Shown: piece by piece, positions 10,102 through 56,602 of the stretch
How the letters are laid out: each line of letters opens with the position of its first letter
How positions within the stretch are numbered: position 1 is the stretch's first letter
NCBI GenBank assembly: GCA_034428635.1
Contig: DAOUHR010000157.1
Coordinates: 1-63,495, forward strand
DNA length: 63,495 bases
Reading direction: 5' to 3'
Source: Dehalococcoidia bacterium
GTDB lineage: Bacteria; Chloroflexota; Dehalococcoidia; Lucifugimonadales; UBA3495
The notes under the pieces: generated by a model
The model's input: only the letters and a program-made list of their open reading frames with translations
Told to the model about the DNA's origin: nothing
The model's database searches: none
Translations under genes and position numbers: made by a program

Positions 10102-11520
10102 ATGGCAGACTCATTGAGCCGCATCCTGGCTCGCTTCGTGGACAACCTGCAGTTCGAAAACCTTCCCCCGGAAGTTCCTGACAAGATCAAGACTTCCTTG
10201 CTCCACGGCTTGCTCGGCGCCTTCCTGGGCGCGGAGACCGAGCACGCCAAGTCATCCATTGAACTGGTCAAGCTGGAGGAAGGGCGAGCCGATGGCGCCA
10301 CTATCCTGGTAGACGGAGCCAAGGCAACCCGCTGCGGCGCCGCCTTTGCCAACAGCAAAATGATGCATGCCACCAACCAGTCCGACTCGTACCGGATGCT
10401 GATTCATCCCGGCCCGTGCATCATCCCCGCGGCCCTGGCCACCGCCCAGATCGAGCGCCGGGCGGGCCGGGAACTGGTAACCGCACTGGCCGCCGGGTAT
10501 GAAGTGGAAGCCAGGATCGCCGGCGATTTCATACCCTCAACCCAGGCACGCGGATTCCGCTCCAGCCCCGTGTACGGTACGTTGGGAGCGGCCGTGACCA
10601 CGGCCAAGCTGCTGCGCCTGAACGTTGACCAGCTTGTCACCACCATGGCGCTGGCGTGTACCTTTACCGGTGGCACCACCGAGGGACCCCGTTCCGGCGG
10701 CCGGGAAATGTTGTTCCACGAACCCAACGCCACCCGCAACGGCATAATGGCGGCCCTGCTGGCCCGGGAGCACGTCCGTGGCTCGGAAACGGCGCTGGAA
10801 GGAGCAGCAGGTTTCTACAATGCCTTCACCGGCAACAACCGGGGCGATCTGTCCTACGTGTTCAGCGGCCCCGAGCATGTGTCTCTTGAATCGGTGGTGG
10901 CCGATCTGGGCGAGCGATGGGAGTTGCTTCACGTTACACCCAAACTATACCCCACGGCCGGTTATAACTGCCCCGTGATTGAGCTGATGTCCGAAATCAG
11001 GGCGACCCACAACCTGCCGATTGACGAAATCGAAAAAATCACAGTGGACATGAGCTGGCTGGAGACCACCTATCCATCGCCGGCGTTCCCCAACCCTGAG
11101 CGCAGCGCTGACGCCCCTGCCGTGGGCAGCACCCACTATTTCACCGCCTATACGTGCGTCCACGGCAGTTATCCGCCCCTGCGCCACCGGATAGACCCGG
11201 GTGATGGCGCTAACGACGATGATTCAGCCGTAATGGGGCTCATGAAAAAGGTCGAAGTTGTCGGTCACCAAAACCGGCAGGCCTTTGCTCCCCGGATTAC
11301 CGTGGCCCTGGAGGGCGGGACCGAGTATATGGGCGAATACCAGGGCAACGAGCTGGAATGGAACCTTTCCATGGAACTGCGGCGGGTAAGGCCTCTATTT
11401 GACGACATGCCCTGGCCGAAAGAAAAGCTGGAGAACGTTGCCCAGATAGTTTCCGGGCTCGAAATTGAACAGAGAATGGATCACTTAATAGCGCAGTGTG
11501 TCAAAATAGACATCATGTAA
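10102..11520 (+). CDS. MmgE/PrpD family protein
   Basis: FVDNLQFENLPPEV, AAFANS...DSY...HPG, AAGYEV, ALEGAAGF, KLYPTAGY. Confidence 0.88.
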   Translation: MADSLSRILARFVDNLQFENLPPEVPDKIKTSLLHGLLGAFLGAETEHAKSSIELVKLEEGRADGATILVDGAKATRCGAAFANSKMMHATNQSDSYRMLIHPGPCIIPAALATAQIERRAGRELVTALAAGYEVEARIAGDFIPSTQARGFRSSPVYGTLGAAVTTAKLLRLNVDQLVTTMALACTFTGGTTEGPRSGGREMLFHEPNATRNGIMAALLAREHVRGSETALEGAAGFYNAFTGNNRGDLSYVFSGPEHVSLESVVADLGERWELLHVTPKLYPTAGYNCPVIELMSEIRATHNLPIDEIEKITVDMSWLETTYPSPAFPNPERSADAPAVGSTHYFTAYTCVHGSYPPLRHRIDPGDGANDDDSAVMGLMKKVEVVGHQNRQAFAPRITVALEGGTEYMGEYQGNELEWNLSMELRRVRPLFDDMPWPKEKLENVAQIVSGLEIEQRMDHLIAQCVKIDIM

Positions 11521-11621: not shown

Positions 11622-12590
11622 GTGCGCTCTGAACAACCTGACATAAACCACTGTTTCAGATGCCATCTTTCCGGTTTTCTGCCGTTAACGGTGGTTTTGC
11701 TGGTCTGTCTGGCGGCTCTTGGGTGCTTTGCTCCCAGGTCCGGCGATCAGGCGGCCCAACTGGGCGGGCCGGAATTTAGCGCGCTGATGGTGAGTTCAGA
11801 CCTGGCGCAGGGAATTAACCGGGTGGCTTTCGCCCTGGTGGACCGGAACAATGTTCCGGTGGGCGCCAGCGAAGCCAGCGTCATTCCCAGGTACACCCCA
11901 CAGGGAGCGCAGGAGCCTCAGCAAAGGGAGGCGTTGACGGCAACCTTCCTGCTCTGGCCTCCGGAAGGAAGTGGCCGGGGCGTATTCATAACAACTGTGA
12001 ATTTCGATGTGCCCGGAGAAGCAACCGCGGAAAACCCCGGCCTGTGGGAATTGCAAATATCGGCTGATACCCCCGATGGCCGGCTGGTCGAGGCTGTTAC
12101 TGCCGTTCGCGTTGCCGCTCAGCAGTCAACACCGGCCATCGGCGCCGCCGCTCCGCGCAGCGTGACGCCCACGGCGGACCAGGCGCCCGACCTGGCCCAC
12201 ATCACCAGCGCCTTCGAACCCGATCCGGAGTTCTACCAGCTTTCAGTTCATGAGGCATTGGACCAACCCAAGCCCCTGTTGGTCCTGTTTTCCACACCGG
12301 CGTTCTGCGTCAGCGCCACCTGCGGGCCCCAGCTGGATATCCTGGGCCAAATGAAGGAACGGTACCGCGGCCGCGTAAACTTCATCCACGTGGAGGTATT
12401 CGAAGACCCCCACCTGATAGAAGGGAACCGCTTTAATGCCAGCCAGGTACCCGCAGTGGATGAGTGGGGCCTGCCGACGGAGCCCTGGACCTTTCTCGTG
12501 GACGGCGACGGACTGGTCCGGGCCAAGTTTGAGCAGTTCACGCCCCGGGAAGCTCTGGAGGCGGCTCTGGAGGAAGTGCTGAAGGGATAA
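11622..12590 (+). CDS. Lipoprotein with C-terminal thioredoxin-like fold (CX4C motif)
   Basis: Signal/lipobox LAALGC; KPLLVLFSTPAFCVSATCGPQ, VNFIHVEV, EWGLPTEPWTFLVDGDG.VRAKFE. True start may be slightly downstream of the GTG. Confidence 0.65.
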   Translation: MRSEQPDINHCFRCHLSGFLPLTVVLLVCLAALGCFAPRSGDQAAQLGGPEFSALMVSSDLAQGINRVAFALVDRNNVPVGASEASVIPRYTPQGAQEPQQREALTATFLLWPPEGSGRGVFITTVNFDVPGEATAENPGLWELQISADTPDGRLVEAVTAVRVAAQQSTPAIGAAAPRSVTPTADQAPDLAHITSAFEPDPEFYQLSVHEALDQPKPLLVLFSTPAFCVSATCGPQLDILGQMKERYRGRVNFIHVEVFEDPHLIEGNRFNASQVPAVDEWGLPTEPWTFLVDGDGLVRAKFEQFTPREALEAALEEVLKG

Positions 12591-15143: not shown

Positions 15144-16286
15144 ATGCCCCCGTCGGGTTCCGGGGACTCGCCCGAAAGCGGTGACAGTTCCGGCGATAGT
15201 ATCATCTACACCAACGATTACGTTATCCTGACCAATGGTGAAAGGAGGCCCGGGCGGTGGCTGCGGCGGTTTGCCCTGGCTTCGGTGTTTGCTACCTTTG
15301 CCCTCATAGTTTTGGGCGGCATAGTTCGGGTAACCGGGTCGGGCCTGGGTTGCGGCGGCGAGTGGCCGCTGTGCGATGGCAGCCTCATTCCACCGCTGAC
15401 CAAGGAAGACATTATTGAATACAGCCACCGGCTTATGGCATCGGGCATAGTTGGTCCCCTGGTTGCTGGCACTTTTCTTATTGCCCTGTTCCGGTACCGG
15501 CGCGTCCGTGCCGTACTCATTCCCTCGGGCATATCGCTTGTTCTGCTGCTGGCCCAGGCCGGTCTGGGCGGCGTGACGGTATTGACCGAACTGCCCGGCC
15601 ACGTGGTCGCGGCCCACATGGCGCTGGCTCAGGCCCTGCTGGCGTGCCTCATACTGGTGGCCGTGGCATCCTTCAACCTCAAGCCGTCCGAATTGCAGCA
15701 GACTCCCACGGGCGACACCCAAATTTCTGCTCAACCTGAGGCGGCAGCGCCGGGACGTCCCAACCGCTTCCCCCTCCTTGCGGGAATAGCAGCCATTGCC
15801 ACTTATCTCCTGCTGCTATCCGGCTCCTACGTTACTGCCACACCGGGCGCGCTGGCCGCCTGTCCCAACTGGCCCCTGTGCGATGGTTCCGGTTCTCTCT
15901 GGCCCTCCAACAGCTTGGAAGCCATTCACATGCTGCACCGGGTTGTGGCCGCTGCGGTAGGAGTCCTCTTGCTGTACACTTTGCACCGGGGACGCCGGTT
16001 AGGCATGGAACGGATTGGTTCCGGCGGAACGATTTTGATGATCTTTTCTTACCTGGGCATCGTTGTCTTCCTTACCCAGGTGTTCATTGGCGCAGTAGCC
16101 ATCTGGACCCACTTTCCTGTTTCCATCCGCGCCTCCCACATTGGCCTGGCGACAGCGGTTTGGGGGATAATGGTTGTCGTAGCGCTGGTAAGCTATCTAC
16201 GTGTATCCGATGACCAGTTGGTGTTAAGCAAAGCCCGCGTGCCACGGGGTTCGGCGCCTGCCTCGGCCCCGCAGGAAACGGACTAA
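15144..16286 (+). CDS. ctaA: Heme A synthase (COX15/CtaA)
   Basis: GGIVRVTGSGLGCGGEWPLC, IEYSHR, AQAGLGGVTV, HMALA, second C..WPLC and HMLHR. Confidence 0.93.
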   Translation: MPPSGSGDSPESGDSSGDSIIYTNDYVILTNGERRPGRWLRRFALASVFATFALIVLGGIVRVTGSGLGCGGEWPLCDGSLIPPLTKEDIIEYSHRLMASGIVGPLVAGTFLIALFRYRRVRAVLIPSGISLVLLLAQAGLGGVTVLTELPGHVVAAHMALAQALLACLILVAVASFNLKPSELQQTPTGDTQISAQPEAAAPGRPNRFPLLAGIAAIATYLLLLSGSYVTATPGALAACPNWPLCDGSGSLWPSNSLEAIHMLHRVVAAAVGVLLLYTLHRGRRLGMERIGSGGTILMIFSYLGIVVFLTQVFIGAVAIWTHFPVSIRASHIGLATAVWGIMVVVALVSYLRVSDDQLVLSKARVPRGSAPASAPQETD

Positions 16287-16316: not shown

Positions 16317-17270
16317 ATGACGGAACAGCAAGCGGCAGTTGAGATTAGCCCCCCTGAAACCGAGGTTCAAGCTGAGGGTCGGCGAACTCCCATGACCGTG
16401 ATCAATGACTACATTACCCTGACAAAGCCACCGATCATTCTGCTGCTTTTGGTTACGGCGGCAGGCGGCATGTTCCTGGCCCAGGCCCAGACGGCCTCCG
16501 GTGGCCTGCCATCGCTATGGTTGATGGTGCTGGTTTGGGGGGGCGGGGCCCTTGCTTCCGGCGGTGCCAACGCCCTGAACCACCACTACGACCGGGATAT
16601 AGACGGTATTATGCAGCGCACCCGGCAGCGTCCGGTTGCCAGCAACCGCATATCTCCGGTCCATGCCCTGATCTTCGGCATTGTCCTCAACGTAGTCGCC
16701 TTTGTGGTGCTGGCCCTGTGGGTCAACTGGCTGGCGGCTGGTCTGACCCTTGCCGCTACCCTCTTCTACGTGCTGGTGTACACCCGCTGGCTGAAGCGCA
16801 CCACCCCCCACAACATCGTTATCGGCGGGGCCGCAGGCGCCATCCCGCCCATGGTGGGCTGGGCTGCGGTAACTGGCACTGTTGAATTGCCGGCAGTCTA
16901 CCTGTTCGCCATAGTTTTCTTCTGGACGCCGCCCCACTTCTGGGCGCTCTCCCTGCTCATTCACCGGGACTACGAGCGGGCAAGCGTGCCCATGCTGCCT
17001 GTGGTGTCGTCGCGGGACTTTACCGTGTCTACGATATTCCTCTACAGCCTGGTGCTGGTAGGGGTAACCCTGATGTTCGCCGTTACAGACGCCGTGGGCT
17101 GGATCTTTGGTGCGTCCGCCCTGGCGCTGGGGGGAATATTCATCTGGATGGCGTGGCGCTTGCGGCAGGAAGAGAACTCCGCCAATGCCAGGAAACTCTA
17201 CCTGTACTCCCTGCTTTATTTGGGATTGCTGTTCGTCGCGGTAATGGTGGGGGCCGCCACCGGCTATTAG
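16317..17270 (+). CDS. ctaB: Protoheme IX farnesyltransferase (heme O synthase)
   Basis: LTKPPI, LNHHYDRDIDGIMQRTRQRP, LKRTTPHNIVIGGAAGAIPP, FFWTPPHFWAL. Confidence 0.95.
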   Translation: MTEQQAAVEISPPETEVQAEGRRTPMTVINDYITLTKPPIILLLLVTAAGGMFLAQAQTASGGLPSLWLMVLVWGGGALASGGANALNHHYDRDIDGIMQRTRQRPVASNRISPVHALIFGIVLNVVAFVVLALWVNWLAAGLTLAATLFYVLVYTRWLKRTTPHNIVIGGAAGAIPPMVGWAAVTGTVELPAVYLFAIVFFWTPPHFWALSLLIHRDYERASVPMLPVVSSRDFTVSTIFLYSLVLVGVTLMFAVTDAVGWIFGASALALGGIFIWMAWRLRQEENSANARKLYLYSLLYLGLLFVAVMVGAATGY

Positions 17271-17421: not shown

Positions 17422-17541
17422 ACTCCGCGCTTGAGTGCACGGCGAAGTAAGAAAGGGAGTTGGCAAATGGGGCTTTTGCCCTTCCGAGGCGCAGATTCCC
17501 AGACCCTTCGGGCCGGGGATAAAAAAGGCAAGACCACACTT

Positions 17542-18660
17542 ATGTCCAAGCGGTTAACCTTCTCACGGAAACACCTCTTCCTACTGGGTTTCACGGCCAT
17601 CCCCTTCCTGGTTATGGCCTGCGCCCCGGATGCCAGGCAGTCCACTTTCGGCACATCCGGTCCTGTAGCTGAGAAACAGCTACTGCTGTTTAACGTTCTC
17701 CTCTGGGTAATGGTCGTCGTTTTTGTCCTGGTAGAGGGCGTCCTGCTCTACGCCGTCATCAAGTTCCGGCGTAGGCCCGGGCAAAACGAGCTTCCTCCCC
17801 AGACTCACGGTCACACTGCCCTGGAAATCACGTGGACCATTGTTCCTACGATTCTTATCCTGGCTCTGGGTATCTGGTCTGCAGTTACCCTTTTTGATCT
17901 TGACCAGCCGCCCTCCGGCGCCGATACGCTGCAGGTAACTGCTGTCGGCCATCAATGGTGGTGGGAGTTCGAATATCCTGACGCCGATGGCAATGGCAAG
18001 TACATAAGCACGGCCAATGAACTCCGGGTGCCGGTTGACCGGGCCGTCAGAGTAGACCTGCGAAGTGACGACGTAATCCACAGTTTCTGGATTCCCAAGC
18101 TGGCAGGCAAAATTGATATGGTCCCTACCCGTGAGAACTACATGTGGTTCCAGGCTGATGAGACCGGCACATTTTATGGCCAGTGTGCAGAATTCTGTGG
18201 TACTGCCCATGCCCAGATGAAATTCCTTGTCCAGGTGTTGCCTCAGGAAGACTATCTCGCCTGGGCGGAGAGCTTTGGCGAAGTCCCGGTCCTTTCAGCC
18301 AAGGCCCAGGCGGGACAGGCGGTGTTTAATGGCACCGGCGGATGCGTTGTTTGCCATACCGCCACCGGGTCCGATGACCCCGCAGTTGTTGCCAGCCGAG
18401 TCCAGAGCTTCCTGACTACTGAGACGGGTATTGCTCCGGGCCCCAATCTGACCGACCTGGCCACCCGCGAACGATTTGGCGCTGGCCTGGTGGATTTGAA
18501 CCGGCAGAACCTGCGCCAGTGGATAAAGAACCCTGAAGACGTCAAACCTGGAAATCATATGTCCGGCAGGGCCGCCATTTACCAGAATTCAGACGGGCAG
18601 GCCAGCCTGAGTGAAACCGAGATTTCCTCCTTGCTGGAATACTTGCTTAGCTTAAAGTAA
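17542..18660 (+). CDS. coxB: Cytochrome c oxidase subunit II with fused C-terminal cytochrome c (caa3 type), lipoprotein
   Basis: Start reassigned to ATG 17542 (MSKRLTF..LVMAC lipobox). GHQWWW, DVIHSFW, CuA motif CAEFCGTAHAQM, heme c CVVCH with distal PGNHM. Confidence 0.95.
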   Translation: MSKRLTFSRKHLFLLGFTAIPFLVMACAPDARQSTFGTSGPVAEKQLLLFNVLLWVMVVVFVLVEGVLLYAVIKFRRRPGQNELPPQTHGHTALEITWTIVPTILILALGIWSAVTLFDLDQPPSGADTLQVTAVGHQWWWEFEYPDADGNGKYISTANELRVPVDRAVRVDLRSDDVIHSFWIPKLAGKIDMVPTRENYMWFQADETGTFYGQCAEFCGTAHAQMKFLVQVLPQEDYLAWAESFGEVPVLSAKAQAGQAVFNGTGGCVVCHTATGSDDPAVVASRVQSFLTTETGIAPGPNLTDLATRERFGAGLVDLNRQNLRQWIKNPEDVKPGNHMSGRAAIYQNSDGQASLSETEISSLLEYLLSLK

Positions 18661-18712: not shown

Positions 18713-20785
18713 ATGGCCACTTTAACCGATGTAATTGAACGGCCAACCAGTCAATCCGGACTGTGGAGCTGGATTACGACGGTTGACCACAAAAGAATAG
18801 GCGTACTTTATGGTGTTACCGCCTTCATCTTCCTGCTCTTGGGCGGAATTGAGGCGGGAATAATCCGGTTGCAGCTTTCCGTGCCTGACAGCACGTTAGT
18901 CAGTCCGGATACTTTCAACCAGATGTTTACCATGCACGGCACCACCATGATCTTCCTGGTGATCATGCCGTTGAGCGCCAGTTTCTTCAACTTCGTTATT
19001 CCTTTGGCAATCGGCGCCAGGGATGTGGCCTTCCCCCGGCTGAATGCCTTCAGTTACTGGGTTTTCCTGTTCGGCGGGTTGCTGCTTAATGCCAGCTTCC
19101 TTACCAATCAGGCCCCCGACGCTGGCTGGTTTTCTTACGCCAACCTTACCGAAAAGCCCTTCAGCGCCAACCAGGGCCTCGATTATTGGGCTCTGGGCCT
19201 GCAGGTGCTGGGCGTTTCCTCCCTGGCCGCGGCGTTTAACTTCATAGTAACCATCGTCAACATGCGGGCTCCCGGCATGAGCCTAATGCGGATGCCCCTG
19301 TTTGTCTGGATGACCCTGGTCACTTCAATCCTTCTGGTCCTCGCCTTCCCGGTGATTACCGTGGGGCTCATTGAACTGACCCTTGACCGTAACTTCGGCA
19401 CAAACTTCTTCGTGCCCGAAGGCGGCGGAGACCCCATTCTGTGGCAGCACCTGTTCTGGGTGTTCGGCCATCCCGAAGTGTATATTCTGATTCTTCCTGC
19501 CATGGGCATTGTCTCGGAAGTACTGCCCACCTTTTCCCGGAAGCCGCTTTTTGGTTACCCGGTGGTTGTCTTCTCCGGCGTGGTAATCGGCATCATGGGC
19601 TGGGCCGTTTGGAGCCACCACATGTTCACGGTGGGTCTCGGCCCCGTAGCCGTCACCGTCTTCATGATCACAACCATGCTCATTGCAGTCCCCACGGGTG
19701 TAAAGATTTTCAACTGGATTGGCACCCTGTGGGGCGGACAGATTGACCTTAAGACGGCCATGCTCTTTTCCCTTGGATTCGTGGCCCTGTTCATAGTGGG
19801 CGGCCTTAGCGGAGTGTCCCACGCGGTGGCTCCTTCGGATAATCAGCAGCAGGATACTTACTATATTGTCGCTCACATCCACTACGTGCTGTTCGGCGGC
19901 TCCCTGTTTGGAATTTTCTCCGGTGTTTACTACTGGTTCCCCAAGCTTACCGGCAGGCTTTTCAATGAAGGGTTAGGCAAGCTGCATTTTTGGCTGTATT
20001 TCATTGGAATGAACGTTACGTTCTTCCCGATGCACTACTTGGGTTTGAACGGTATGCCCCGCCGGATTTATACCTATGCCAGTGAATTTGGCTGGGACGG
20101 GTTGAATTTGCTGGCCTCCCTGGGCTATCTGGTTCTTTTCGCGGGTACCTTGATCTTCGTGATTAACGTGTTGATAAGCCTGCGCAAGGAACCCGATGCC
20201 GGGCATGATCCGTGGGATGCCCCAGGCCTGGAATGGAGTATTGCCTCACCGCCACCGAGTTATAACTTTGCAAAGATTCCCGAGGTAGAAGGCCTGGACC
20301 ACTACTGGATCGTCAAGCGTCGGGCTGCGGCAGAGGGCCGGCCCGTCACGGAACCGGAAGCCTATGTGGACCCCAGCACAATCCATATGCCGGATCCCTC
20401 TTACTGGCCGCTGATAACTGCCATAGGTGTGCTTGTTCTGGCAGCGGGAATGTTGTTCGATACCGGGTGGGACTATATCCGGTTCCCGATACCCTTTATC
20501 GGCGGCATCATCTGTTTTATTGGAATAATTGGCTGGTCCAATGAGCCGCCGGCCCGGGAGCATGCCGGTGGAGACCACCATGCGGAGGGTGACCACGGTC
20601 GCGAACCGCACGCCGTAACCGCGACCACAACAGCTGTAATGGAACGCCCTGCCGGGACGGCCTCACTTACAGTCCGGCTGCTTTGCTCCAATTGCGGCAA
20701 TCAATTGTCATCGTCTTTCCGATTCTGCCCCTATTGCGGCGGAGCGGTTGAAAATCCCGCTGAACCAGACCACCAGGAGGGGTAG
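18713..20785 (+). CDS. coxA: Cytochrome c oxidase subunit I (type A1) with extra TM helices and a His-rich/zinc-ribbon C-terminal tail
   Basis: TTVDHKRIG, MHGTTMIF, D-channel DVAFPRLN, GHPEVY, WSHHMF, K-channel PTGVKIF, AHIHY, GMPRR; tail CSNC...FCPYC. Confidence 0.97.
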   Translation: MATLTDVIERPTSQSGLWSWITTVDHKRIGVLYGVTAFIFLLLGGIEAGIIRLQLSVPDSTLVSPDTFNQMFTMHGTTMIFLVIMPLSASFFNFVIPLAIGARDVAFPRLNAFSYWVFLFGGLLLNASFLTNQAPDAGWFSYANLTEKPFSANQGLDYWALGLQVLGVSSLAAAFNFIVTIVNMRAPGMSLMRMPLFVWMTLVTSILLVLAFPVITVGLIELTLDRNFGTNFFVPEGGGDPILWQHLFWVFGHPEVYILILPAMGIVSEVLPTFSRKPLFGYPVVVFSGVVIGIMGWAVWSHHMFTVGLGPVAVTVFMITTMLIAVPTGVKIFNWIGTLWGGQIDLKTAMLFSLGFVALFIVGGLSGVSHAVAPSDNQQQDTYYIVAHIHYVLFGGSLFGIFSGVYYWFPKLTGRLFNEGLGKLHFWLYFIGMNVTFFPMHYLGLNGMPRRIYTYASEFGWDGLNLLASLGYLVLFAGTLIFVINVLISLRKEPDAGHDPWDAPGLEWSIASPPPSYNFAKIPEVEGLDHYWIVKRRAAAEGRPVTEPEAYVDPSTIHMPDPSYWPLITAIGVLVLAAGMLFDTGWDYIRFPIPFIGGIICFIGIIGWSNEPPAREHAGGDHHAEGDHGREPHAVTATTTAVMERPAGTASLTVRLLCSNCGNQLSSSFRFCPYCGGAVENPAEPDHQEG

Positions 20786-20787
20786 AG

Positions 20788-21468
20788 TTGGCCCACCAAA
20801 CGGAAATGACCCATCACGCTCCCGAGGAGGAGCACCCGACTACAACGGGTATCAACAACCGCAAGTTGTTGATGTGGGTGTTCCTGTCGTCGGACTGCCT
20901 GTTCTTTGGTTCACTGATTGCGACTTACATGGTTTACCGGGGTCAAAGCCTTGTGGGGCCCTACCCGGTGGACATTATCGACGTTCCCGTTACCACCATC
21001 AGCACCTTCGTCCTGCTTTGCAGTAGTTTCGCCATGGTGAGGGCGCTGGCTGCCACCAACGAGGACCGGCAGGGTGCAATAATTGTTTGGCTTTTGCTGA
21101 CGGCGTTTCTTGGGGCCATATTTATCGGGTTCCAGGTCTATGAGTTTAACCTGTTCCGGGAGGAGGGTCTGCGGATTGATACCAACCTGTTTGGTACAAC
21201 CTTCTTCACCCTGACCGGGTTCCACGGGGCCCACGTTACTCTTGGTATCGTCTGGCTGCTTGGTCTTGCCTGGATTGCCAAGAAGGGGCGCCTGGGGCCT
21301 AAGACCGCCCTGGACGTAGAACTGGCCGGCCTTTACTGGCACTTTGTCGATATCGTCTGGATCGTAATCTTTACCCTTTTGTACCTGATTGGCGGGTTCG
21401 ACACCGGCCCGGCCGGAGACCCGTCCCTGGTCCCACACTCGATCACCGGCTTGCTGGGTCTGATCTAA
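20788..21468 (+). CDS. coxC: Cytochrome c oxidase subunit III (short form)
   Basis: MWVFLSSDCLFFGSLI, FFTLTGFHGAHV, GLYWHFVDIVW. Confidence 0.95.
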   Translation: MAHQTEMTHHAPEEEHPTTTGINNRKLLMWVFLSSDCLFFGSLIATYMVYRGQSLVGPYPVDIIDVPVTTISTFVLLCSSFAMVRALAATNEDRQGAIIVWLLLTAFLGAIFIGFQVYEFNLFREEGLRIDTNLFGTTFFTLTGFHGAHVTLGIVWLLGLAWIAKKGRLGPKTALDVELAGLYWHFVDIVWIVIFTLLYLIGGFDTGPAGDPSLVPHSITGLLGLI

Positions 21469-21481
21469 GGAGATACGGCGC

Positions 21482-22291
21482 ATGAGCAGCGACCCCGGGG
21501 TTCACGAATCCCGCCACCCTACGCTCAAACAGTATGTGTGGATTGCCATATTCCTGTTTGTCGTAACTTTAGTTGAGTTCGTGATCATCCTGCCTGAGGA
21601 TTTCCGAGGACAGGGCTGGACCATCGCTCCCCTGGCCTTACTGTCGGCCATCAAGTTCGCCGCCGTTATCTTCTTCTACATGCATTTGAAGTTCGACAGT
21701 CGGCTGCTGACGTGGGTCTTCCTGGGTGGTCTGGCGTTGGGCTTTGCCGTGGTATTCGCATTGATTGGCTTGTTCGGTACCTTCACGCCATCTCCCAGGG
21801 CTTGGGCAGAGGACCATGCCAAACCCTGCACTTTCGACCATGAATATGTCTGTGTCGAGTACAGGCCCACGGCGACTCCGCTCCCTGCTCCCACCCCTGA
21901 GGGCGGCGTTGCCCCGACTTCGGTTCCGGCTCCAGACTCGGCGGCCGCGGCTGGCTCCGGCGAACTGTTGGGAATTGGCCAGCAGATTTTCCTTACCGGG
22001 CAGGGTGAGGGAACTGCCACGGGATGCTATACCTGCCATACGATTGCTGGATTGGAGGGCGCTTCCGGTTTGCTGGGCCCCGACTTGACCACCATAGGCG
22101 CCGACGCGGCCAATCGGCAGCCGGGTGTATCCGCAGAAGACTACTTGAGGCAGTCGATCACTGAGCCGGAAAGCTTTGTTGCTGAAGGGGTCGAAAGAGC
22201 CGTCCCGGGCTTGATGCTGTCTGCCTTGACCGGAGGTCTGACCGATAACGACGTGAACGCCCTGGTAGCTTTCTTGTTGGAGCAAAAATAA
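21482..22291 (+). CDS. Cytochrome c oxidase subunit IV (CtaF-like) fused to a C-terminal class I cytochrome c
   Basis: N-terminal QYVWIAIFLFVVTLVE...KFAAVIFFYMHLKFDSRLL (subunit IV signature), then a Pro-rich linker, CYTCH...GPDL...YLRQSI..P...VPGLM. Confidence 0.85.
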   Translation: MSSDPGVHESRHPTLKQYVWIAIFLFVVTLVEFVIILPEDFRGQGWTIAPLALLSAIKFAAVIFFYMHLKFDSRLLTWVFLGGLALGFAVVFALIGLFGTFTPSPRAWAEDHAKPCTFDHEYVCVEYRPTATPLPAPTPEGGVAPTSVPAPDSAAAAGSGELLGIGQQIFLTGQGEGTATGCYTCHTIAGLEGASGLLGPDLTTIGADAANRQPGVSAEDYLRQSITEPESFVAEGVERAVPGLMLSALTGGLTDNDVNALVAFLLEQK

Positions 22292-22346
22292 CGAGATCTG
22301 ACCGCTGGCACTCTTTCGTTCAACTGGAACTGCTGAAACCGTCGAC

Positions 22347-22374
22347 CGCCCGTCACAGTCGGGCGGTTTTTCTT
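22347..22374 (+). terminator. Intrinsic terminator of the oxidase operon
   Basis: accgcccg-tcacagt-cgggcggt followed by ttttcttt. Confidence 0.75.
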
Positions 22375-22451
22375 TGGCCCTTCCTGTGCTAACCTTTTTT
22401 CTAGTATCGGCTTCATCCCCATCCCTTGCGCACGGTTGCAGGAGGGTGAAT

Positions 22452-22790
22452 ATGGCTAAAATTCTTCACCTCATTACGGAGCAGGACTGGGAGTCCGCTC
22501 GCGACGCCTGCCAATGGCGCCCCGGCAGCCTGGCTGAAGAAGGATTTATCCATTGTTCTGCGGACGAAGAGCAGGCAATGCGGGTTGTGGCGCGTCTATA
22601 CCCGGACCGCACCGATATGCTTGCCCTGGAAGTGGATACCGATAAGCTAAATTATTCGGTTGTCTCCGAACCAAGCCGTTCCGGTGAGATTTACCCCCAC
22701 ATTTATGGTCCTCTGGAAATGAGCGCTGTCGTTATGGTCTGGCGTGTCAATGCAGACGGGCAGGGCGGCTACGCTCTATCCGATCAATAG
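22452..22790 (+). CDS. DUF952 family protein
   Basis: Start reassigned to ATG 22452 (GGAGG RBS). ILHLIT..DWESA, SLAEEGFIHCS, EIYPHIYGPL. Confidence 0.88.
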   Translation: MAKILHLITEQDWESARDACQWRPGSLAEEGFIHCSADEEQAMRVVARLYPDRTDMLALEVDTDKLNYSVVSEPSRSGEIYPHIYGPLEMSAVVMVWRVNADGQGGYALSDQ

Positions 22791-22884
22791 AGTCTGGCGT
22801 TGCCGACAGTCCTTTCCCGAAGCCAACATATCATCCCTGACCAGCGTTCTAATCCGCTGCTTCAGGGGAAGCCAAGGCAGCGCT

Positions 22885-23901
22885 ATGGCTGACTACACTG
22901 ATGTGGAAATGGCCCGCCTGCGCTCGGCTCTCGTCAACTTCCGGACACTTTCTAATGACGACCTCCAGGAGATTGGCCGCGCCATTGAAGCTGGCCACTG
23001 TCCTCCCCACCTGGGGCCCTTCTGGCGGCTGGCGTCGTCCGATAACGACCACGCCGCCGCCGCCGATCTGTTTCGCAAACTTGAGGGCGATCGCCTCGTG
23101 GCGAGCTACTCATGCTACGGCTTTTTCCCTGGCATTCACTCCCGGCTGTACCAACAGGGTGAGCGCCCCGAGTTCTGGCTTGATGGCCGGACGCGCGGCC
23201 AGGTGGCGCTGTTCCGGTTCGCCAGCGGGAAAGGGTTTGTGGTCAAGCCCCTGCAAAGTCGAAGGGAGGCAGAAATCGCCCGCCTCGCGGGGGACGCCGG
23301 GGTCGGCCCCCACCAATTTACGTCGCTGGAAGGTTTCCTGGTAGAAGAACTGGTGAATGGCCGGTTTATTACAGAGTACGCCGAAGAAGAACTGGATGAC
23401 GGTCTGATTTTCCAAATTGGCCTCACCTTGGGTTCCATGCTTTCAACTCTGCACAACGCAGGTATCTGCTACAACGATGCCACCCTGTCCGACCCGGACG
23501 GCCGCTCCCACCTGTTCGTCCGACTGCCGGATGAGAACCGGCCCGGGCAGCCTCCCGCCTGTACACTCATTGACTTTGGGGTGTCCGTATTCCTGGACAG
23601 GTTTCCTTACCTGGAGTTGGAAGAGGTCTTCAACCTGGTGCGGACAACCCCTGAATACCGTTTTGTGTCCCGCCTGGGACTGCGGGGAAATGAACTTAGC
23701 CGATTTCTGGTCCAGTACCGGCAGAGATTGTCTGCCAGCGACAAGGAAGAAATCCTGGCTCGCGACCTGCGCTTTACTCAGGAAGGGTTGCAGCAGGCTT
23801 CCCGCAGCATGGGCGCGGGCATAATTGCCCCGTTCCAGCAGGGGTTCACCGAGGGCTACGACAGGAAGGGTTGGTATTCGCATCCACCGGTGGTAGGATG
23901 A
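22885..23901 (+). CDS. Atypical protein-kinase-like fold protein (Bud32/RIO/Kdo-like)
   Basis: Start reassigned to ATG 22885. FVVKP (beta3 Lys), RREAE (helix C Glu), LVEELVNG, LHNAGICYND, LIDFG. Confidence 0.6.
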   Translation: MADYTDVEMARLRSALVNFRTLSNDDLQEIGRAIEAGHCPPHLGPFWRLASSDNDHAAAADLFRKLEGDRLVASYSCYGFFPGIHSRLYQQGERPEFWLDGRTRGQVALFRFASGKGFVVKPLQSRREAEIARLAGDAGVGPHQFTSLEGFLVEELVNGRFITEYAEEELDDGLIFQIGLTLGSMLSTLHNAGICYNDATLSDPDGRSHLFVRLPDENRPGQPPACTLIDFGVSVFLDRFPYLELEEVFNLVRTTPEYRFVSRLGLRGNELSRFLVQYRQRLSASDKEEILARDLRFTQEGLQQASRSMGAGIIAPFQQGFTEGYDRKGWYSHPPVVG

Positions 23902-24986: not shown

Positions 24987-26261
24987 CTAATATATGACCT
25001 GTCCATCCTGTAACCGCTCAATCTCCCCCGCGGGCAAACCCAGCAACTCTCCGAGAATGTAATCGTTATGCTGCCCGAGCAAGGGCGCAGGTCTGCTGAT
25101 GCCGCCGGGCGTTGATCCCAGCAGCCAGGGCATCCCGTAGAGCCACTCAATGCCGACGTGCGGGTGCTCAATCTCCAGGTATGCCTGCCGTTCCTGAAGA
25201 TGTGGGTCGACAAACTGGTCTTCAATGTTCATTACCGGCATTGCAGCCACGCCCTGGGCCTGCAAGAGGTCCGTAATTTCCTGGGCGGTCTGCTGCCGCG
25301 TCCAGGCAGCCACCAGGGAGTCCAGTTCAAATATGTTTTCCAGGCGAGCGGCAAGGGTTTCAAACCTTTCCTCCGTGGCCCAGACAGGGCTACCCAGGGC
25401 ATGGCAGAAGCCTGCCCATTCCTCGTCGGTGCCCACGGCTATGGCCACCCAGCGGTCGGGTTCGGAGCAGGGGTAGTTGTTATGGGGGGCAAAGGCGGGG
25501 TCGAAGTTGCCTTGAGGGAGGGGTGCCGAGCCGGTCATCTGGTATTCCAGGAACGCCTCTCCCAGCATGGATGTGGTGGCTTCCAATTGGGCTACTTCAA
25601 TGAACTGGCCCTGCCCTGTCAAATTGCGGTGGCGCAGGGCGGCAACCGTTGCCAGCGCGGCGTGGATGGCTGCCACCACGTCACTCCAGGGAGCCTGCAG
25701 TTCTCCAACCAGCCGTTCATCTTCAGAGTAACCCACCACGCTCATCAGCCCGGACAGTGCCTGTATGATGGGGGCGTAAGCCAGCACGTCTCGCAGCGGG
25801 CCGACTTCACCCATGGCCGGCATGGATACCAGGATGATGTCGGGACGTAGTTCCCGCAATTCTGGGTAGGACAGCCCCAGTCGCTCCAGCACCCCCGGCG
25901 AGTAATTGTTTATGGCCACGTCGCTGCGGGCCAGCAACTCTCGGACCAGCGCCAGGCCCTCATCGGTCTTCAAGTTCAGGGTCAGGCCGAGTTTGTTGCG
26001 GTTTATGCCATGAAAGACGGGCTGCAATTCCGGCCATAATCCTCGGTCGCCGCCTGCTATGTCGTCGCCCACAATGGGCCTGCCCAGGCGCAGCCCATCC
26101 ATCCTTTCCCGGCTTTCCACCTTGATGACCTCAGCTCCCAGGTCCGCCAGAAGCTGGGCTGCCATCGGCCCGGCCCAGGCCGTGCCAAAGTCCACCACCC
26201 GGTAGCGGGACAGAGGCAGCCGGTCTTGGTCACTTAATCCCTGGATATTATTCGTTGTCAT
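24987..26261 (-). CDS. Family III (CaiB/BaiF) CoA-transferase, catalytic Asp present
   Basis: Start reassigned to ATG 26261. VVDFGTAWAGP, LGAEVIKVE, NRNKLGLTLNL, APWSDV, APLLGQHN. Confidence 0.92.
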   Translation of the reverse strand: MTTNNIQGLSDQDRLPLSRYRVVDFGTAWAGPMAAQLLADLGAEVIKVESRERMDGLRLGRPIVGDDIAGGDRGLWPELQPVFHGINRNKLGLTLNLKTDEGLALVRELLARSDVAINNYSPGVLERLGLSYPELRELRPDIILVSMPAMGEVGPLRDVLAYAPIIQALSGLMSVVGYSEDERLVGELQAPWSDVVAAIHAALATVAALRHRNLTGQGQFIEVAQLEATTSMLGEAFLEYQMTGSAPLPQGNFDPAFAPHNNYPCSEPDRWVAIAVGTDEEWAGFCHALGSPVWATEERFETLAARLENIFELDSLVAAWTRQQTAQEITDLLQAQGVAAMPVMNIEDQFVDPHLQERQAYLEIEHPHVGIEWLYGMPWLLGSTPGGISRPAPLLGQHNDYILGELLGLPAGEIERLQDGQVIY

Positions 26262-26304
26262 GCTTTCAGGGCGGAAAACTGGTCGGGATGGTGATTCGCC
26301 GGTT

Positions 26305-27561
26305 TCAGATTGTCCCCTCTTGGGACATTCTGTCCAGGTCCGGCATGCTGATTCCAAGCTCCCCTGCCAGTACTTCCTCATTGTGCTGACCCAGCCGCGG
26401 GGCCGGCCTGACCAGACGTGGGCCGGGCGCTGAAAACCGGTAAGGAAGGCCGGGGTAGCGGAATCTCCCTGCGGACTCGTGCTCTACATCAGCAAAAAAC
26501 TGCCGGTAAGTCAATTGCGGGTCTGCCAGGGCCTCGTCAAAGTTCTGTACCGGGACACAGGGGATACGGTTTGCCAGGCACGCCTCCAGGATTTCCTGCT
26601 TGGTGCGCTCCATGAACCAGGGTGCTATCAGGTCCTCCGCCTCCTCCGGGTACTGGTCGCTCATCGCCCTCCGGTCCCGGTAGCGAGGGTTCTCCATCCA
26701 GTCCTGCTCCCCCAGCAGGTCCAGGAACCTCCGGTACTGTTCCATTTGCGGCGCGTCGATACAGACGTAACCGTCCCTGCAGGGAAGCACGCAGTTGGGG
26801 AAAAGGCCCAGGCGCATCCGGTTGCCCGAGCGGAAGCCGGCCACACCCCGGTAAATATAGGTCGGCAGATGATACCCGGTCAGGAGAGTCCCAATCACCT
26901 GCGCCTCGGCCACGTCCACCGACTGGCCTTGCCCGGTCAGGTCTCGTCCCAGGAGGGCCACAATGCTGGCGAAGGCGGCGCCTACGCCGGCAAGGTAGCT
27001 GGCCTGGTGCAATGGAGTGGTCAGTGGCTCCCGGTGGGCATGGCCTGTTCCGAAGCTCAAGCCGCTCATGGCATTAGCGGTCAGGTCGGTGCCTTTGTAG
27101 CCCTTGTACGGCCCGGTACGGCCGTAGGGAGAGATTGAGGTGACTACCAGCGCTGGGCAGGATTCCTTCAAATAAGCGTAGTCCAGCCCAAGTTTTTCAA
27201 GCAGGGGCAGGGGCTGGTTTTCAACGAAGATATCCGCCGTTTCCAGCAGGCGGCCCAGGATCCGTCGTCCTTCGGTTGATTCGACATTGAGGGTGATGCC
27301 CCGCTTGTTCAGGTTGGCAAAGAGAAAGAGGCCGCTGTGTTCGGGATGAGGGACGCCACCTGGAAAGGGACCGCGGGTACGGCCTCCGTCTCCCGTCCTT
27401 GGCGGTTCTATTTTTGTGACGTCGGCCCCCAACTCGCCCAGCACCTTGCCGCAGAAGGGCGCAGAGACCAGGCTGCCCCACTCAACAACCCGGACTCCGG
27501 CAAGCGGGCCGCCGTACTCGGTTGGATCCGGTGGGCTCGACTGGGGCAGGGCCGATGTCAA
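26305..27561 (-). CDS. Family III CoA-transferase, catalytic Asp replaced (QASY)
   Basis: PLAGVRVVEW, LGADVTKIE, NLNKRGITL, PLHQASYLAG, APRLGQHN. Confidence 0.9.
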   Translation of the reverse strand: MTSALPQSSPPDPTEYGGPLAGVRVVEWGSLVSAPFCGKVLGELGADVTKIEPPRTGDGGRTRGPFPGGVPHPEHSGLFLFANLNKRGITLNVESTEGRRILGRLLETADIFVENQPLPLLEKLGLDYAYLKESCPALVVTSISPYGRTGPYKGYKGTDLTANAMSGLSFGTGHAHREPLTTPLHQASYLAGVGAAFASIVALLGRDLTGQGQSVDVAEAQVIGTLLTGYHLPTYIYRGVAGFRSGNRMRLGLFPNCVLPCRDGYVCIDAPQMEQYRRFLDLLGEQDWMENPRYRDRRAMSDQYPEEAEDLIAPWFMERTKQEILEACLANRIPCVPVQNFDEALADPQLTYRQFFADVEHESAGRFRYPGLPYRFSAPGPRLVRPAPRLGQHNEEVLAGELGISMPDLDRMSQEGTI

Positions 27562-55985: not shown

Positions 55986-56131
55986 GTTCAAAGCCGACTT
56001 GAACTTAACACGGTCAAGGAACCTTCCCCAGACCACCTGCCAGGCGATGACTGCAGAGTGACACCGGCGGTGAAAGGCTTTCCGAGGGACCGTTGCAGAT
56101 TGGGAAGGAATGCGCGGAGGGGATTGGTGTA

Positions 56132-56602
56132 ATGGGAAGATGCGGAAGAACCACCGGCGGTCAATGGGCCTTCACCATAGTCTTGGCGTTGATCATACTG
56201 GCTGCGGCCGCCTGCACCGGCACTGAGACTGTGGTGACAGAGACGCCAACGCCATCAGTCGTGGAACAGGTTCCAGCCCCCGTCTCCAACTTGTCCGACA
56301 CTGCTCAAGCTGGCGAGCAACTGTTCAATACCAATTGCTCCGCCTGTCATGGATTAAGCGCCGTCGGCACAACCCTCGGCCCGCCTCTAATTCACCGCGT
56401 TTACCACCCCGGCCATCACCCGGACTTCAGCATCCGTAACGCCGTCGCCCAGGGCGTCCCCCAACACCACTGGCCCTTTGGCGACATGGCCCCCGTCCCA
56501 GGCGTGGAAGCTCAGGACGTGGAAAACATCATCTGCTACATTCGCGAAACCCAACGCTCCGCAGGCATATTTGACGGCGATGACTTCGGGACCGTGTGCT
56601 GA
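56132..56602 (+). CDS. Membrane-anchored (lipoprotein) class I cytochrome c
   Basis: Lipobox LAAAAC, CSACH, HHPD, HHWPFGDMAP. Start at ATG 56132. Confidence 0.85.
   Translation: MGRCGRTTGGQWAFTIVLALIILAAAACTGTETVVTETPTPSVVEQVPAPVSNLSDTAQAGEQLFNTNCSACHGLSAVGTTLGPPLIHRVYHPGHHPDFSIRNAVAQGVPQHHWPFGDMAPVPGVEAQDVENIICYIRETQRSAGIFDGDDFGTVC

Follow-up and report, generated by a model that had tools for sequence, protein, structure and literature searches.

A conserved fusion of a cytochrome c domain to subunit IV of a terminal oxidase in Dehalococcoidia

Introduction

Why would subunit IV of a terminal oxidase carry a cytochrome c domain? The question is raised by a contig of 63,495 nt from a Dehalococcoidia bacterium (accession number DAOUHR010000157.1, assembly GCA_034428635.1), the whole of which is referred to here as the window, and in which positions 21482 to 22291 of the forward strand form a single unbroken open reading frame (ORF) that starts with ATG and encodes 269 aa. 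Few enzymes have been studied as thoroughly as the haem-copper oxidases. The cytochromes known to be built into them are located on subunit II in the caa3 type and on dedicated subunits in the cbb3 type, and subunit IV has been treated as a cofactor-free accessory. A sequence-only reading of the gene, here called coxIV::c, had proposed a subunit IV fused to a second cytochrome c that acts as a flexibly tethered electron shuttle within the oxidase. The fusion is real, goes far beyond a chance occurrence and is under selection; the architecture is widespread, apparently undescribed and uncharacterized, and mechanistically within known principles. On the basis of sequence comparisons, subunit IV probably anchors a tethered carrier in the membrane, which would feed the haem c of subunit II and/or CuA.

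Conservation and distribution of the fusion

Among 5.8 billion proteins searched, 261 relatives were detected, and the best 120 clusters were used for all residue counts given below. Nearly all of these are 240–280 aa long and contain both Pfam domains, with identities of 38–100 %. The haem-binding motif CxxCH is present in 119 of the 120 clusters, the sole exception being a truncated protein, while four clusters, at about 381 aa, have two such motifs. In a contig search with one genome per species, 421 stretches were found to encode a relative, and the best 80 were examined. All 80 match over the full length and belong to Dehalococcoidia, SAR202 or Chloroflexota metagenome-assembled genomes (MAGs), several of the loci lying on closed long-read chromosomes of 2.3–4.8 Mb. 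Where the flanks are present, the gene order in these loci is ctaA-ctaB-coxII-coxI-coxIII-coxIV::c, i.e. the fusion always follows coxIII, and subunit II always has one CxxCH of its own. The window shows the same order, in which the fusion gene is the fourth and last structural gene.

Among 111 distinct related oxidase loci, the fusion was found in 79, each time in the same operon slot. The C-terminal modules of subunit IV in these loci are as follows:

One haem c: 75 loci (one partly masked)
Two haem c: 4 loci
Cupredoxin: 19 loci
None: 13 loci

The loci with an unfused subunit IV come from other Chloroflexota, Eisenbacteria and Gemmatimonadota; in genomes with an unfused subunit IV no cytochrome c or cupredoxin gene was found directly downstream, the next gene resembling, by eye, an oxidase assembly factor. 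One locus (L072) lacks a CxxCH, but its sequence is masked with X.

The features of the fusion gene in the window and of its immediate borders are:

21467–21472, forward strand: Shine-Dalgarno sequence AAGGAG of coxIV::c, overlapping the coxIII stop codon
21482–21793, forward strand: subunit IV membrane anchor, residues 1–104 (COX4_pro, AlphaFold2 helices, hydropathy peaks and invariant columns)
21827–21853, forward strand: juxtamembrane beta-hairpin C116-TFD-H120-EYV-C124 (C-x3-H-x3-C), putatively at the outer face (AlphaFold2 strands 116–119 and 123–126)
21860–21955, forward strand: flexible tether, residues 127–158, YRPTATPLPAPTPEGGVAPTSVPAPDSAAAAG (predicted disordered)
21956–22288, forward strand: class I cytochrome c domain, residues 159–269 (Pfam Cytochrom_C, domain-only AlphaFold2 model, Foldseek and PDB profile search)
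22344–22368, forward strand: terminator-like hairpin closing the operon, with a nine-pair stem (seven G-C) followed by TTTCTTT, the whole feature reaching to 22378 (consensus match only)

The cytochrome c domain

The C-terminal domain matches Pfam Cytochrom_C over residues 179–267 (E 3e-6; 28.9 bits against a cutoff of 21.3). Its haem-binding motif is CYTCH at residues 182–186 (22025–22039), and a putative axial methionine, Met245 (22214–22216), lies in a P-G-L-M motif and is conserved in 112 of the 120 homologues; the CYTCH and the distal GLM had both been picked out in the first reading and are confirmed as family features. The haem would probably be ligated by His186 and Met245. In the profile alignment to Kustd1711 of Kuenenia stuttgartiensis, however, the known Met116 of that protein aligns four residues upstream of Met245, which leaves the exact ligand assignment uncertain. 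The domain has a net charge of −10.

A Foldseek search with the full-length model returned noise (best E 2.9, with CyoD, 6wti_D, at rank 18), because this model consists of two domains on a disordered linker. The domain-only AlphaFold2 model (pLDDT 90.1) was informative, and its leading matches are c-type cytochromes throughout. The cytochrome c domain of the caa3 oxidase from Rhodothermus marinus (1W2L) ranks first (E 1e-4, TM-scores 0.63/0.73), followed by Kustd1711 (7ZS0, TM-score 0.65) and SoxX, and at lower ranks by NorC, cbb3 cytochrome subunits and subunit II of the Thermus caa3 oxidase (2YEV_B). A profile search against PDB sequences gave the same two leading relatives, i.e. 7zs0 (E 6e-21) and 1w2l (E 2e-9). 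The TIGR04485 SoxX model also matches the domain (E 9.6e-10), below the model cutoff.

The haem domains of subunit II and subunit IV in the window share about 30 % identity over 88 columns (E 0.004), and a recent duplication of the subunit II haem domain was ruled out on these values. The stretch PESFVAEG of the window protein aligns with PEKYVVEG, the calcium loop of Kustd1711; this likeness is a lead towards a high-potential haem and should be taken as a lead only.

Anchor, hairpin, tether and topology

Over residues 20–90, the N-terminal part scores 34.2 bits with Pfam COX4_pro (E 3.5e-8), the gathering cutoff being 28.9. With two narrower NCBIfam models, TIGR02229 and TIGR02908, the fusion protein stays below cutoff, and it therefore appears to be a divergent COX4_pro member. 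A full-length AlphaFold2 model, built on 76 homologues, places three transmembrane (TM) helices at residues 15–36, 45–70 and 73–100, and there are three hydropathy peaks. The N-terminal tail contains a conserved RHPT motif, while FFYMHLKFD forms the end of helix 2 and is almost invariant across the family, in agreement with the three-helix subunit IV that had been recognized from this motif. Beyond helix 3 the model shows a short helix and the beta-hairpin (residues 116–126), then a drop in pLDDT to below 50 at residues 139–156 and a haem domain with pLDDT above 90.

The CTFDHEYVC segment singled out by the first reading corresponds to this hairpin, but its cysteine pair is kept in only about 75 of the 120 homologues (Cys116 in 77, Cys124 in 73), whereas His120 is kept in 109. 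The same histidine is also retained in cupredoxin-bearing relatives (..PFEHEG..). The hairpin may be stapled by a disulfide, or it could form a small metal site in contact with the core of the oxidase.

The linker had been described as Pro/Ala-rich. A disordered linker is indeed predicted, but across the family its composition is broader, i.e. 24 % Pro, 19 % Ala, 13 % Glu and 12 % Thr, with an unconserved sequence and a spacing of 84–127 residues between MHLKF and CxxCH. The biased composition, the lack of sequence conservation, the variable length and the predicted disorder support a flexible linker in the window's own clade. By simple arithmetic, a linker of 32 residues has a contour length of about 110 Å, which should be more than a four-subunit A-type oxidase measures in the membrane plane.

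As for topology, the N-terminal tail has on average 1.8 Lys plus Arg residues and loop 2, which is 7 residues long, has 1.9, against a mean of 0.95 for loop 1; the sequence past helix 3 is acidic. The haem of c-type cytochromes is attached outside the cell. From the odd number of helices, the distribution of positive charges, the site of haem attachment and the export of the free homologues described below, we infer an N-in/C-out topology with the haem domain facing outward.

Variant modules on subunit IV

A hidden Markov model (HMM) search of 1.84 billion cluster representatives gave 91 matches at E ≤1e-30, and the best 150 matches were inspected. About 33 clusters of these 150 join the subunit IV anchor, recognized by MHLKF, to a CxxCH.

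Other relatives carry a cupredoxin. In five proteins (P0151, P0167, P0170, P0190 and P0255) the same anchor and linker end in a domain of the plastocyanin/azurin family, with Pfam Copper-bind matches down to E 1e-24. The cupredoxin-bearing relatives contain a complete type-1 His-Cys-His-Met site (HNWVL...C-TFPGH-N..M) and are azurin/auracyanin-like. Their genes occupy the same slot after coxIII in about 19 distinct Dehalococcoidia/SAR202 loci, in which subunit II retains its haem c, and they split into at least two separate groups in an unsupported neighbour-joining CoxI tree. Across the relatives, the predicted haem c and blue-copper domains are shown to be interchangeable on subunit IV.

The haem-bearing forms also vary. 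Relatives of 355–384 aa carry a tandem cytochrome c; they are encoded at loci L062, L064, L065 and L075 (match from 8001 to about 9150) and include the proteins P0111, P0114, P0117, P0120, P0122 and P0130. Together with the subunit II haem, the tandem would therefore amount to three c haems per oxidase. In two further proteins folded spacers take the place of the floppy linker between anchor and cytochrome c, i.e. two IPT/TIG domains in P0137 (379 aa) and a duplicated domain of about 130 aa without a Pfam match in P0179 (478 aa). These spacers seem to keep the haem at a fixed height above the membrane.

At the other extreme, short-linker fusions of 217–227 aa occur among the HMM matches, and the versions from Sericytochromatia have almost no linker. 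Two Sericytochromatia (Cyanobacteriota) MAGs carry such a fusion (L161, 7001–7642; L162, 6911–7624). Their operon reads coxII(c)-coxI-coxIII-coxIV::c and continues with a gene of about 300 aa and one for a TM-anchored cytochrome c (L161, 8590–9234; L162, 8811–9392) with an acidic, His/Glu-rich linker, giving three c-type haem domains per operon in a second phylum. Fused c-type cytochromes in the oxidases of Sericytochromatia may also be mentioned by Soo et al. (2017, Science).

Free relatives of the haem and copper modules

Stand-alone homologues of the haem domain bear on where the module came from. Ten of the nearest were inspected (133–228 aa; profile E 1e-36 to 1e-45), and eight of them are of the tethered lipoprotein type, with a signal peptide, a lipobox cysteine (..IGCSG, ..STACG, ..LAACGG) and a long Pro/Thr/Ala linker. 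The free form of the module thus typically appears to be a lipid-tethered cytochrome. Free cupredoxin homologues from the same lineage likewise have mostly a lipoprotein-type signal and a Pro/Thr linker.

The window itself encodes a separate cytochrome c of this kind:

56093–56602, forward strand: lipoprotein-type cytochrome c of 169 aa (Pfam Cytochrom_C, E 6e-11; lipobox read from the sequence)

Its signal ends in LAAAAC and is followed by a Thr/Pro/Glu/Val linker and a CSACH motif, and its subfamily differs from that of the subunit IV domain. It is possibly an additional tethered carrier in the same organism.

Role of the module: a probable tethered donor and its alternatives

A swap between cytochrome c and a blue-copper protein is a classic signature of a small electron carrier. 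Here, a class I cytochrome c and a type-1 copper protein, which are functionally equivalent small carriers and both occur lipid-tethered in this lineage, have become joined to one and the same position of subunit IV, and the module is therefore probably the electron donor of the oxidase. In such an arrangement, a tethered class I cytochrome c would have exchanged its lipid anchor for the three-helix anchor of subunit IV. In function it would be an A-family equivalent of dedicated input subunits such as CcoP of the cbb3 oxidases, or of the membrane-anchored cytochromes cy, c552 and c550/c551. With the N-terminus in the cytoplasm and helix 3 emerging at the outer face, the acidic Pro/Ala/Thr/Glu linker of about 30 residues would keep the haem c domain above the membrane, at a ratio of 1:1 with the enzyme. 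The domain would act as the oxidase's own electron-entry module, fed by an upstream quinol-oxidising complex or by another tethered carrier, and electrons would pass from the subunit IV haem to the haem c of subunit II, or straight to CuA, and from there to haem a and a3-CuB. The attachment of haem to the subunit IV domain, the direction of electron transfer, the partners and the step from the subunit IV haem to the subunit II haem are all what we infer from the sequences.

As regards the claim of a flexibly tethered shuttle, the conserved fusion, the disordered linker, the fold match and the copper swap all speak for it, but the variants of some lineages fit a fixed relay better. Its extension to an element that replaces a soluble cytochrome c in a monoderm cell is not supported in that wording: a lipid anchor seems to have been present in the ancestral free form, a further cytochrome c of lipoprotein type is encoded in the window, and the fusion occurs in Sericytochromatia as well.

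Several observations weigh against a tethered donor. Subunit II already has a haem c, and the need for a second one is not obvious. The second tethered cytochrome c in the window may render the subunit IV haem redundant or reserve it for a different partner. The positive-inside signal is modest, and the predicted topology derives for the most part from homology and from the fact that the free homologues are exported. No genes for complex III, alternative complex III (ACIII) or Rieske proteins were found near the operon in any of 160 Chloroflexota-centred cox loci (L001–L160), of which all ORFs were checked for at least three CxxCH or for Rieske motifs, the scan yielding a single unrelated pentahaem ORF. 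Finally, one geometry of an arm swinging to subunit II cannot fit all members, because some are the linker-poor Sericytochromatia forms and others have IPT/TIG or repeat spacers.

Alternatively, the haem domain would act as a fixed relay or would dock a supercomplex, forming a static haem wire in which the linker merely spans a distance and the domain sits permanently on the oxidase or bridges to an ACIII- or bc-type complex, comparable to CcoP-CcoO or the diheme QcrC. The 217–227 aa Sericytochromatia fusions allow little swinging, the two-haem variants are wire-like, the IPT/TIG spacers of P0137 suggest a defined stand-off distance, and cbb3 and NorC cytochrome subunits are among the Foldseek matches; these sequences suggest fixed geometries in some lineages. 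In the window's clade, however, the linker is predicted to be disordered, is unconserved and varies in length, the free homologues are lipoproteins on long floppy linkers, as is typical of diffusing tethered carriers, and the loci scanned above link no complex III genes to the operon. We regard a fixed relay as rather unlikely.

Could the tethered module instead serve another enzyme? Subunit IV would then be a mere anchor, and the haem or copper domain would work for a different extracytoplasmic redox enzyme, such as a SoxX-like partner, a nitrite reductase or a dehydrogenase. The SoxX matches at the level of profile and structure point this way, as do the many multidomain proteins with this domain among the profile matches and the fusion of the same 'C1'-type cytochrome to NirS/NirK and other enzymes in Chloroflexi (PMC8756737). 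Yet the domain was never seen apart from the cox operon in 80 of 80 loci, its best fold match is the haem c domain of a caa3 oxidase, and a 1:1 carrier on a terminal oxidase makes most sense with the oxidase as partner. In addition, no sox or nir genes were noticed in the examined parts of the cox loci, the flanks of which were not systematically scanned for them. A foreign partner thus appears very unlikely.

An artefact of assembly, gene calling or a frameshift has next to no probability, as has a gene in decay whose haem domain is dead, and both were rejected, given a reading frame without interruption that is preceded by a Shine-Dalgarno sequence and followed by a terminator-like hairpin, the same architecture in more than 100 protein clusters and in the best 80 of 80 loci from independent genomes, including long-read closed chromosomes, an invariant CxxCH (L072, one related locus without it, being masked), an invariant Met and many further invariant domain residues; a sequencing error, which the first reading had itself considered, is covered by the same evidence.

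The oxidase operon and its surroundings

The genes upstream of coxIV::c in the conserved cluster are:

15144–16286, forward strand: ctaA, haem A synthase, first gene of the cluster (Pfam COX15-CtaA, E 1.3e-32), in the same position in most related loci
16317–17270, forward strand: ctaB, haem O synthase (protoheme IX farnesyltransferase; Pfam UbiA, E 3.5e-63), position conserved
17431–18660, forward strand: coxII, caa3 type (Pfam COX2_TM, COX2 and Cytochrom_C; TIGR02866 CoxB, 218.6 bits, above cutoff)
18713–20785, forward strand: coxI, 690 aa (Pfam COX1, E 3.6e-163; TIGR02891 CtaD, 727 bits, above cutoff)
20788–21468, forward strand: coxIII, 226 aa, short five-helix type (Pfam COX3, E 1.7e-19)

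An A-family subunit I, a subunit II with CuA and cytochrome c, and ctaA/ctaB upstream together identify the predicted enzyme as an A-family caa3-type cytochrome c oxidase. Subunit II reads as two TM helices, a CuA cupredoxin domain (HSFW...CAEFCGTAHAQM) with the motif H...CxExCxxxHxxM, and a C-terminal cytochrome c with CVVCH; together with its Pfam Cytochrom_C match, this bears out the earlier claim that subunit II has a haem c of its own. The longest ORF of coxII (5' end 17431–17640) begins at a TTG, while an ATG near 17542 yields MSKRLTFSRKHLFLLGFTAIPFLVMAC, a lipoprotein-type signal. The true start is probably this ATG (MSKRL...), with a lipoprotein-like signal ending in LVMAC, and subunit II of the window may thus be lipid-modified. 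Bacillus CtaC and QoxA are lipid-modified.

CoxI extends past the canonical 12-helix core (20420–20785, residues ~570–690) with two extra hydrophobic helices, a His-rich stretch and a zinc ribbon (Zn_Ribbon_1, residues 658–676; CSNC...CPYC), which is expected to be cytoplasmic because the number of helices is even. A C-terminal CxxC...CxxC is found in 24 of 75 related CoxI proteins, those of the clade nearest to the window, while in relatives further away the C-terminus is a His-rich tail in place of the ribbon.

Directly past the operon terminator starts a gene for a DUF952 protein (22374–22790, forward strand; Pfam E 1.8e-23), for which no link to the oxidase was seen. The surroundings of the operon (10102–11520, 24987–26381 and neighbours) encode an MmgE/PrpD-family protein, a family III CoA-transferase, a PD40-repeat prolyl oligopeptidase and an ABC-2 exporter. 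Such a gene content fits reports on SAR202-type Chloroflexota and is in line with the taxonomic placement of the related loci. The neighbouring ORFs 11622–12590 and 22744–23901 gave no match in Pfam.

Previous descriptions and significance

The oxidase fusions known from the surveys of Degli Esposti are COX1-3, COX1-4 and COX2-cytochrome c only (PMC4013037, PMC8239418). An appendix table of PMC8756737 lists 'COX IV' together with the Chloroflexi 'C1' cytochrome for two accessions, uncommented. The subunit IV haem domain corresponds to this 'C1' cytochrome, and its domain family is promiscuous. Beyond that table entry, the searchable literature yielded no account of subunit IV being fused to a cytochrome c or to a cupredoxin. 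The question whether the architecture is already a common and characterized one thus receives a divided answer: it is common in metagenomes, where it is automatically annotated with both Pfam domains, but its characterization is apparently absent from the searchable literature.

If subunit IV carries a redox module, be it haem c or type-1 copper, this subunit gains a clear function. The set of variants would offer a natural experiment in which tethered and diffusing electron carriers, as well as linkers of different length, can be compared. It would also bear on the respiration of uncultured SAR202-type Chloroflexota, a group abundant in sponges and in deep-ocean water. A more far-reaching idea, which we put forward as a possibility and with considerable doubt, is that subunit IV of SAR202/Dehalococcoidia may be a modular donor socket, into which different lineages fit haem c (single, double or raised on Ig-like stilts) or blue copper (one domain or two). 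The result would be a self-contained oxidase that is supplied by the quinol-oxidising complex without a free carrier, and in which the choice of haem or copper perhaps tracks iron and copper in the ocean. If true, this choice would be an evolutionary, structural counterpart of the cytochrome c6/plastocyanin switch, and it would represent undescribed respiratory wiring in one of the most abundant bacterial groups of the deep ocean.

Comparison with known systems

The closest parallel at the level of the enzyme is provided by the caa3 oxidases of Thermus thermophilus (2YEV), Rhodothermus marinus and Bacillus subtilis (CtaC-F), which are A-family enzymes with a built-in class I haem c, and subunit II of the window has the same fusion. 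In these oxidases, however, only subunit II bears a haem c, subunit IV being free of cofactors, whereas here subunit IV also carries a predicted redox module on a long linker.

With respect to the architecture of anchor, flexible linker and outer class I cytochrome c, the protein resembles the tethered cytochromes, i.e. Rhodobacter cy, Paracoccus c552, Bacillus CccA and CccB, and heliobacterial c553. CccA is TM-anchored and CccB is a lipoprotein, and the linkers of tethered carriers are rich in Ala and Pro. The haem domain gave weak profile and fold matches to cy (6xkw_Y) and c552 (1c7m). While those cytochromes are separate, diffusing products that serve several partners, the carrier of the window would be fixed 1:1 through a structural subunit of the oxidase. 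Since its anchor is a three-helix oxidase subunit, the protein is best seen as an analogue of cy, c552, CccA and CccB and not as a member of their family.

Dedicated, membrane-anchored c-type subunits for electron entry that make a soluble carrier unnecessary are also known from CcoP/CcoO of the cbb3 oxidases and from the diheme QcrC of the actinobacterial bcc-aa3 supercomplex. CcoP and CcoO together hold three c haems, a number matched by the two-haem variants of subunit IV plus the subunit II haem. These are nevertheless unrelated subunit families, belonging to a family C oxidase or to complex III and docked rigidly, and their Foldseek similarity to the haem domain is weak (E 0.03–0.5).

For the cupredoxin-bearing relatives, the parallels are auracyanin of Chloroflexus/Roseiflexus and the sulfocyanin SoxE of the Sulfolobus SoxM supercomplex, which are tethered type-1 copper proteins and proposed carriers of oxidases; these relatives give Pfam matches to Copper-bind and weaker ones to SoxE. 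The known auracyanins and sulfocyanin are each anchored independently and are not fused to subunit IV, and the likeness concerns the sister lineages, while the window protein carries a predicted haem.

Finally, the closest solved relative in sequence is Kustd1711 (29 % identity), an acidic diheme carrier of about +350 mV in which a backbone loop, ..PEKYVVEG.., binds Ca2+ beside each haem (PMC11791136). Both this protein and the window domain are strongly acidic and have in common a GP(D)...YL.ESI..PE.(F/Y)V.EG motif, which includes the calcium-binding loop of Kustd1711. In contrast to the window protein, Kustd1711 belongs to the nxr cluster of an anammox bacterium and consists of two haem domains and a third domain, with no oxidase part.

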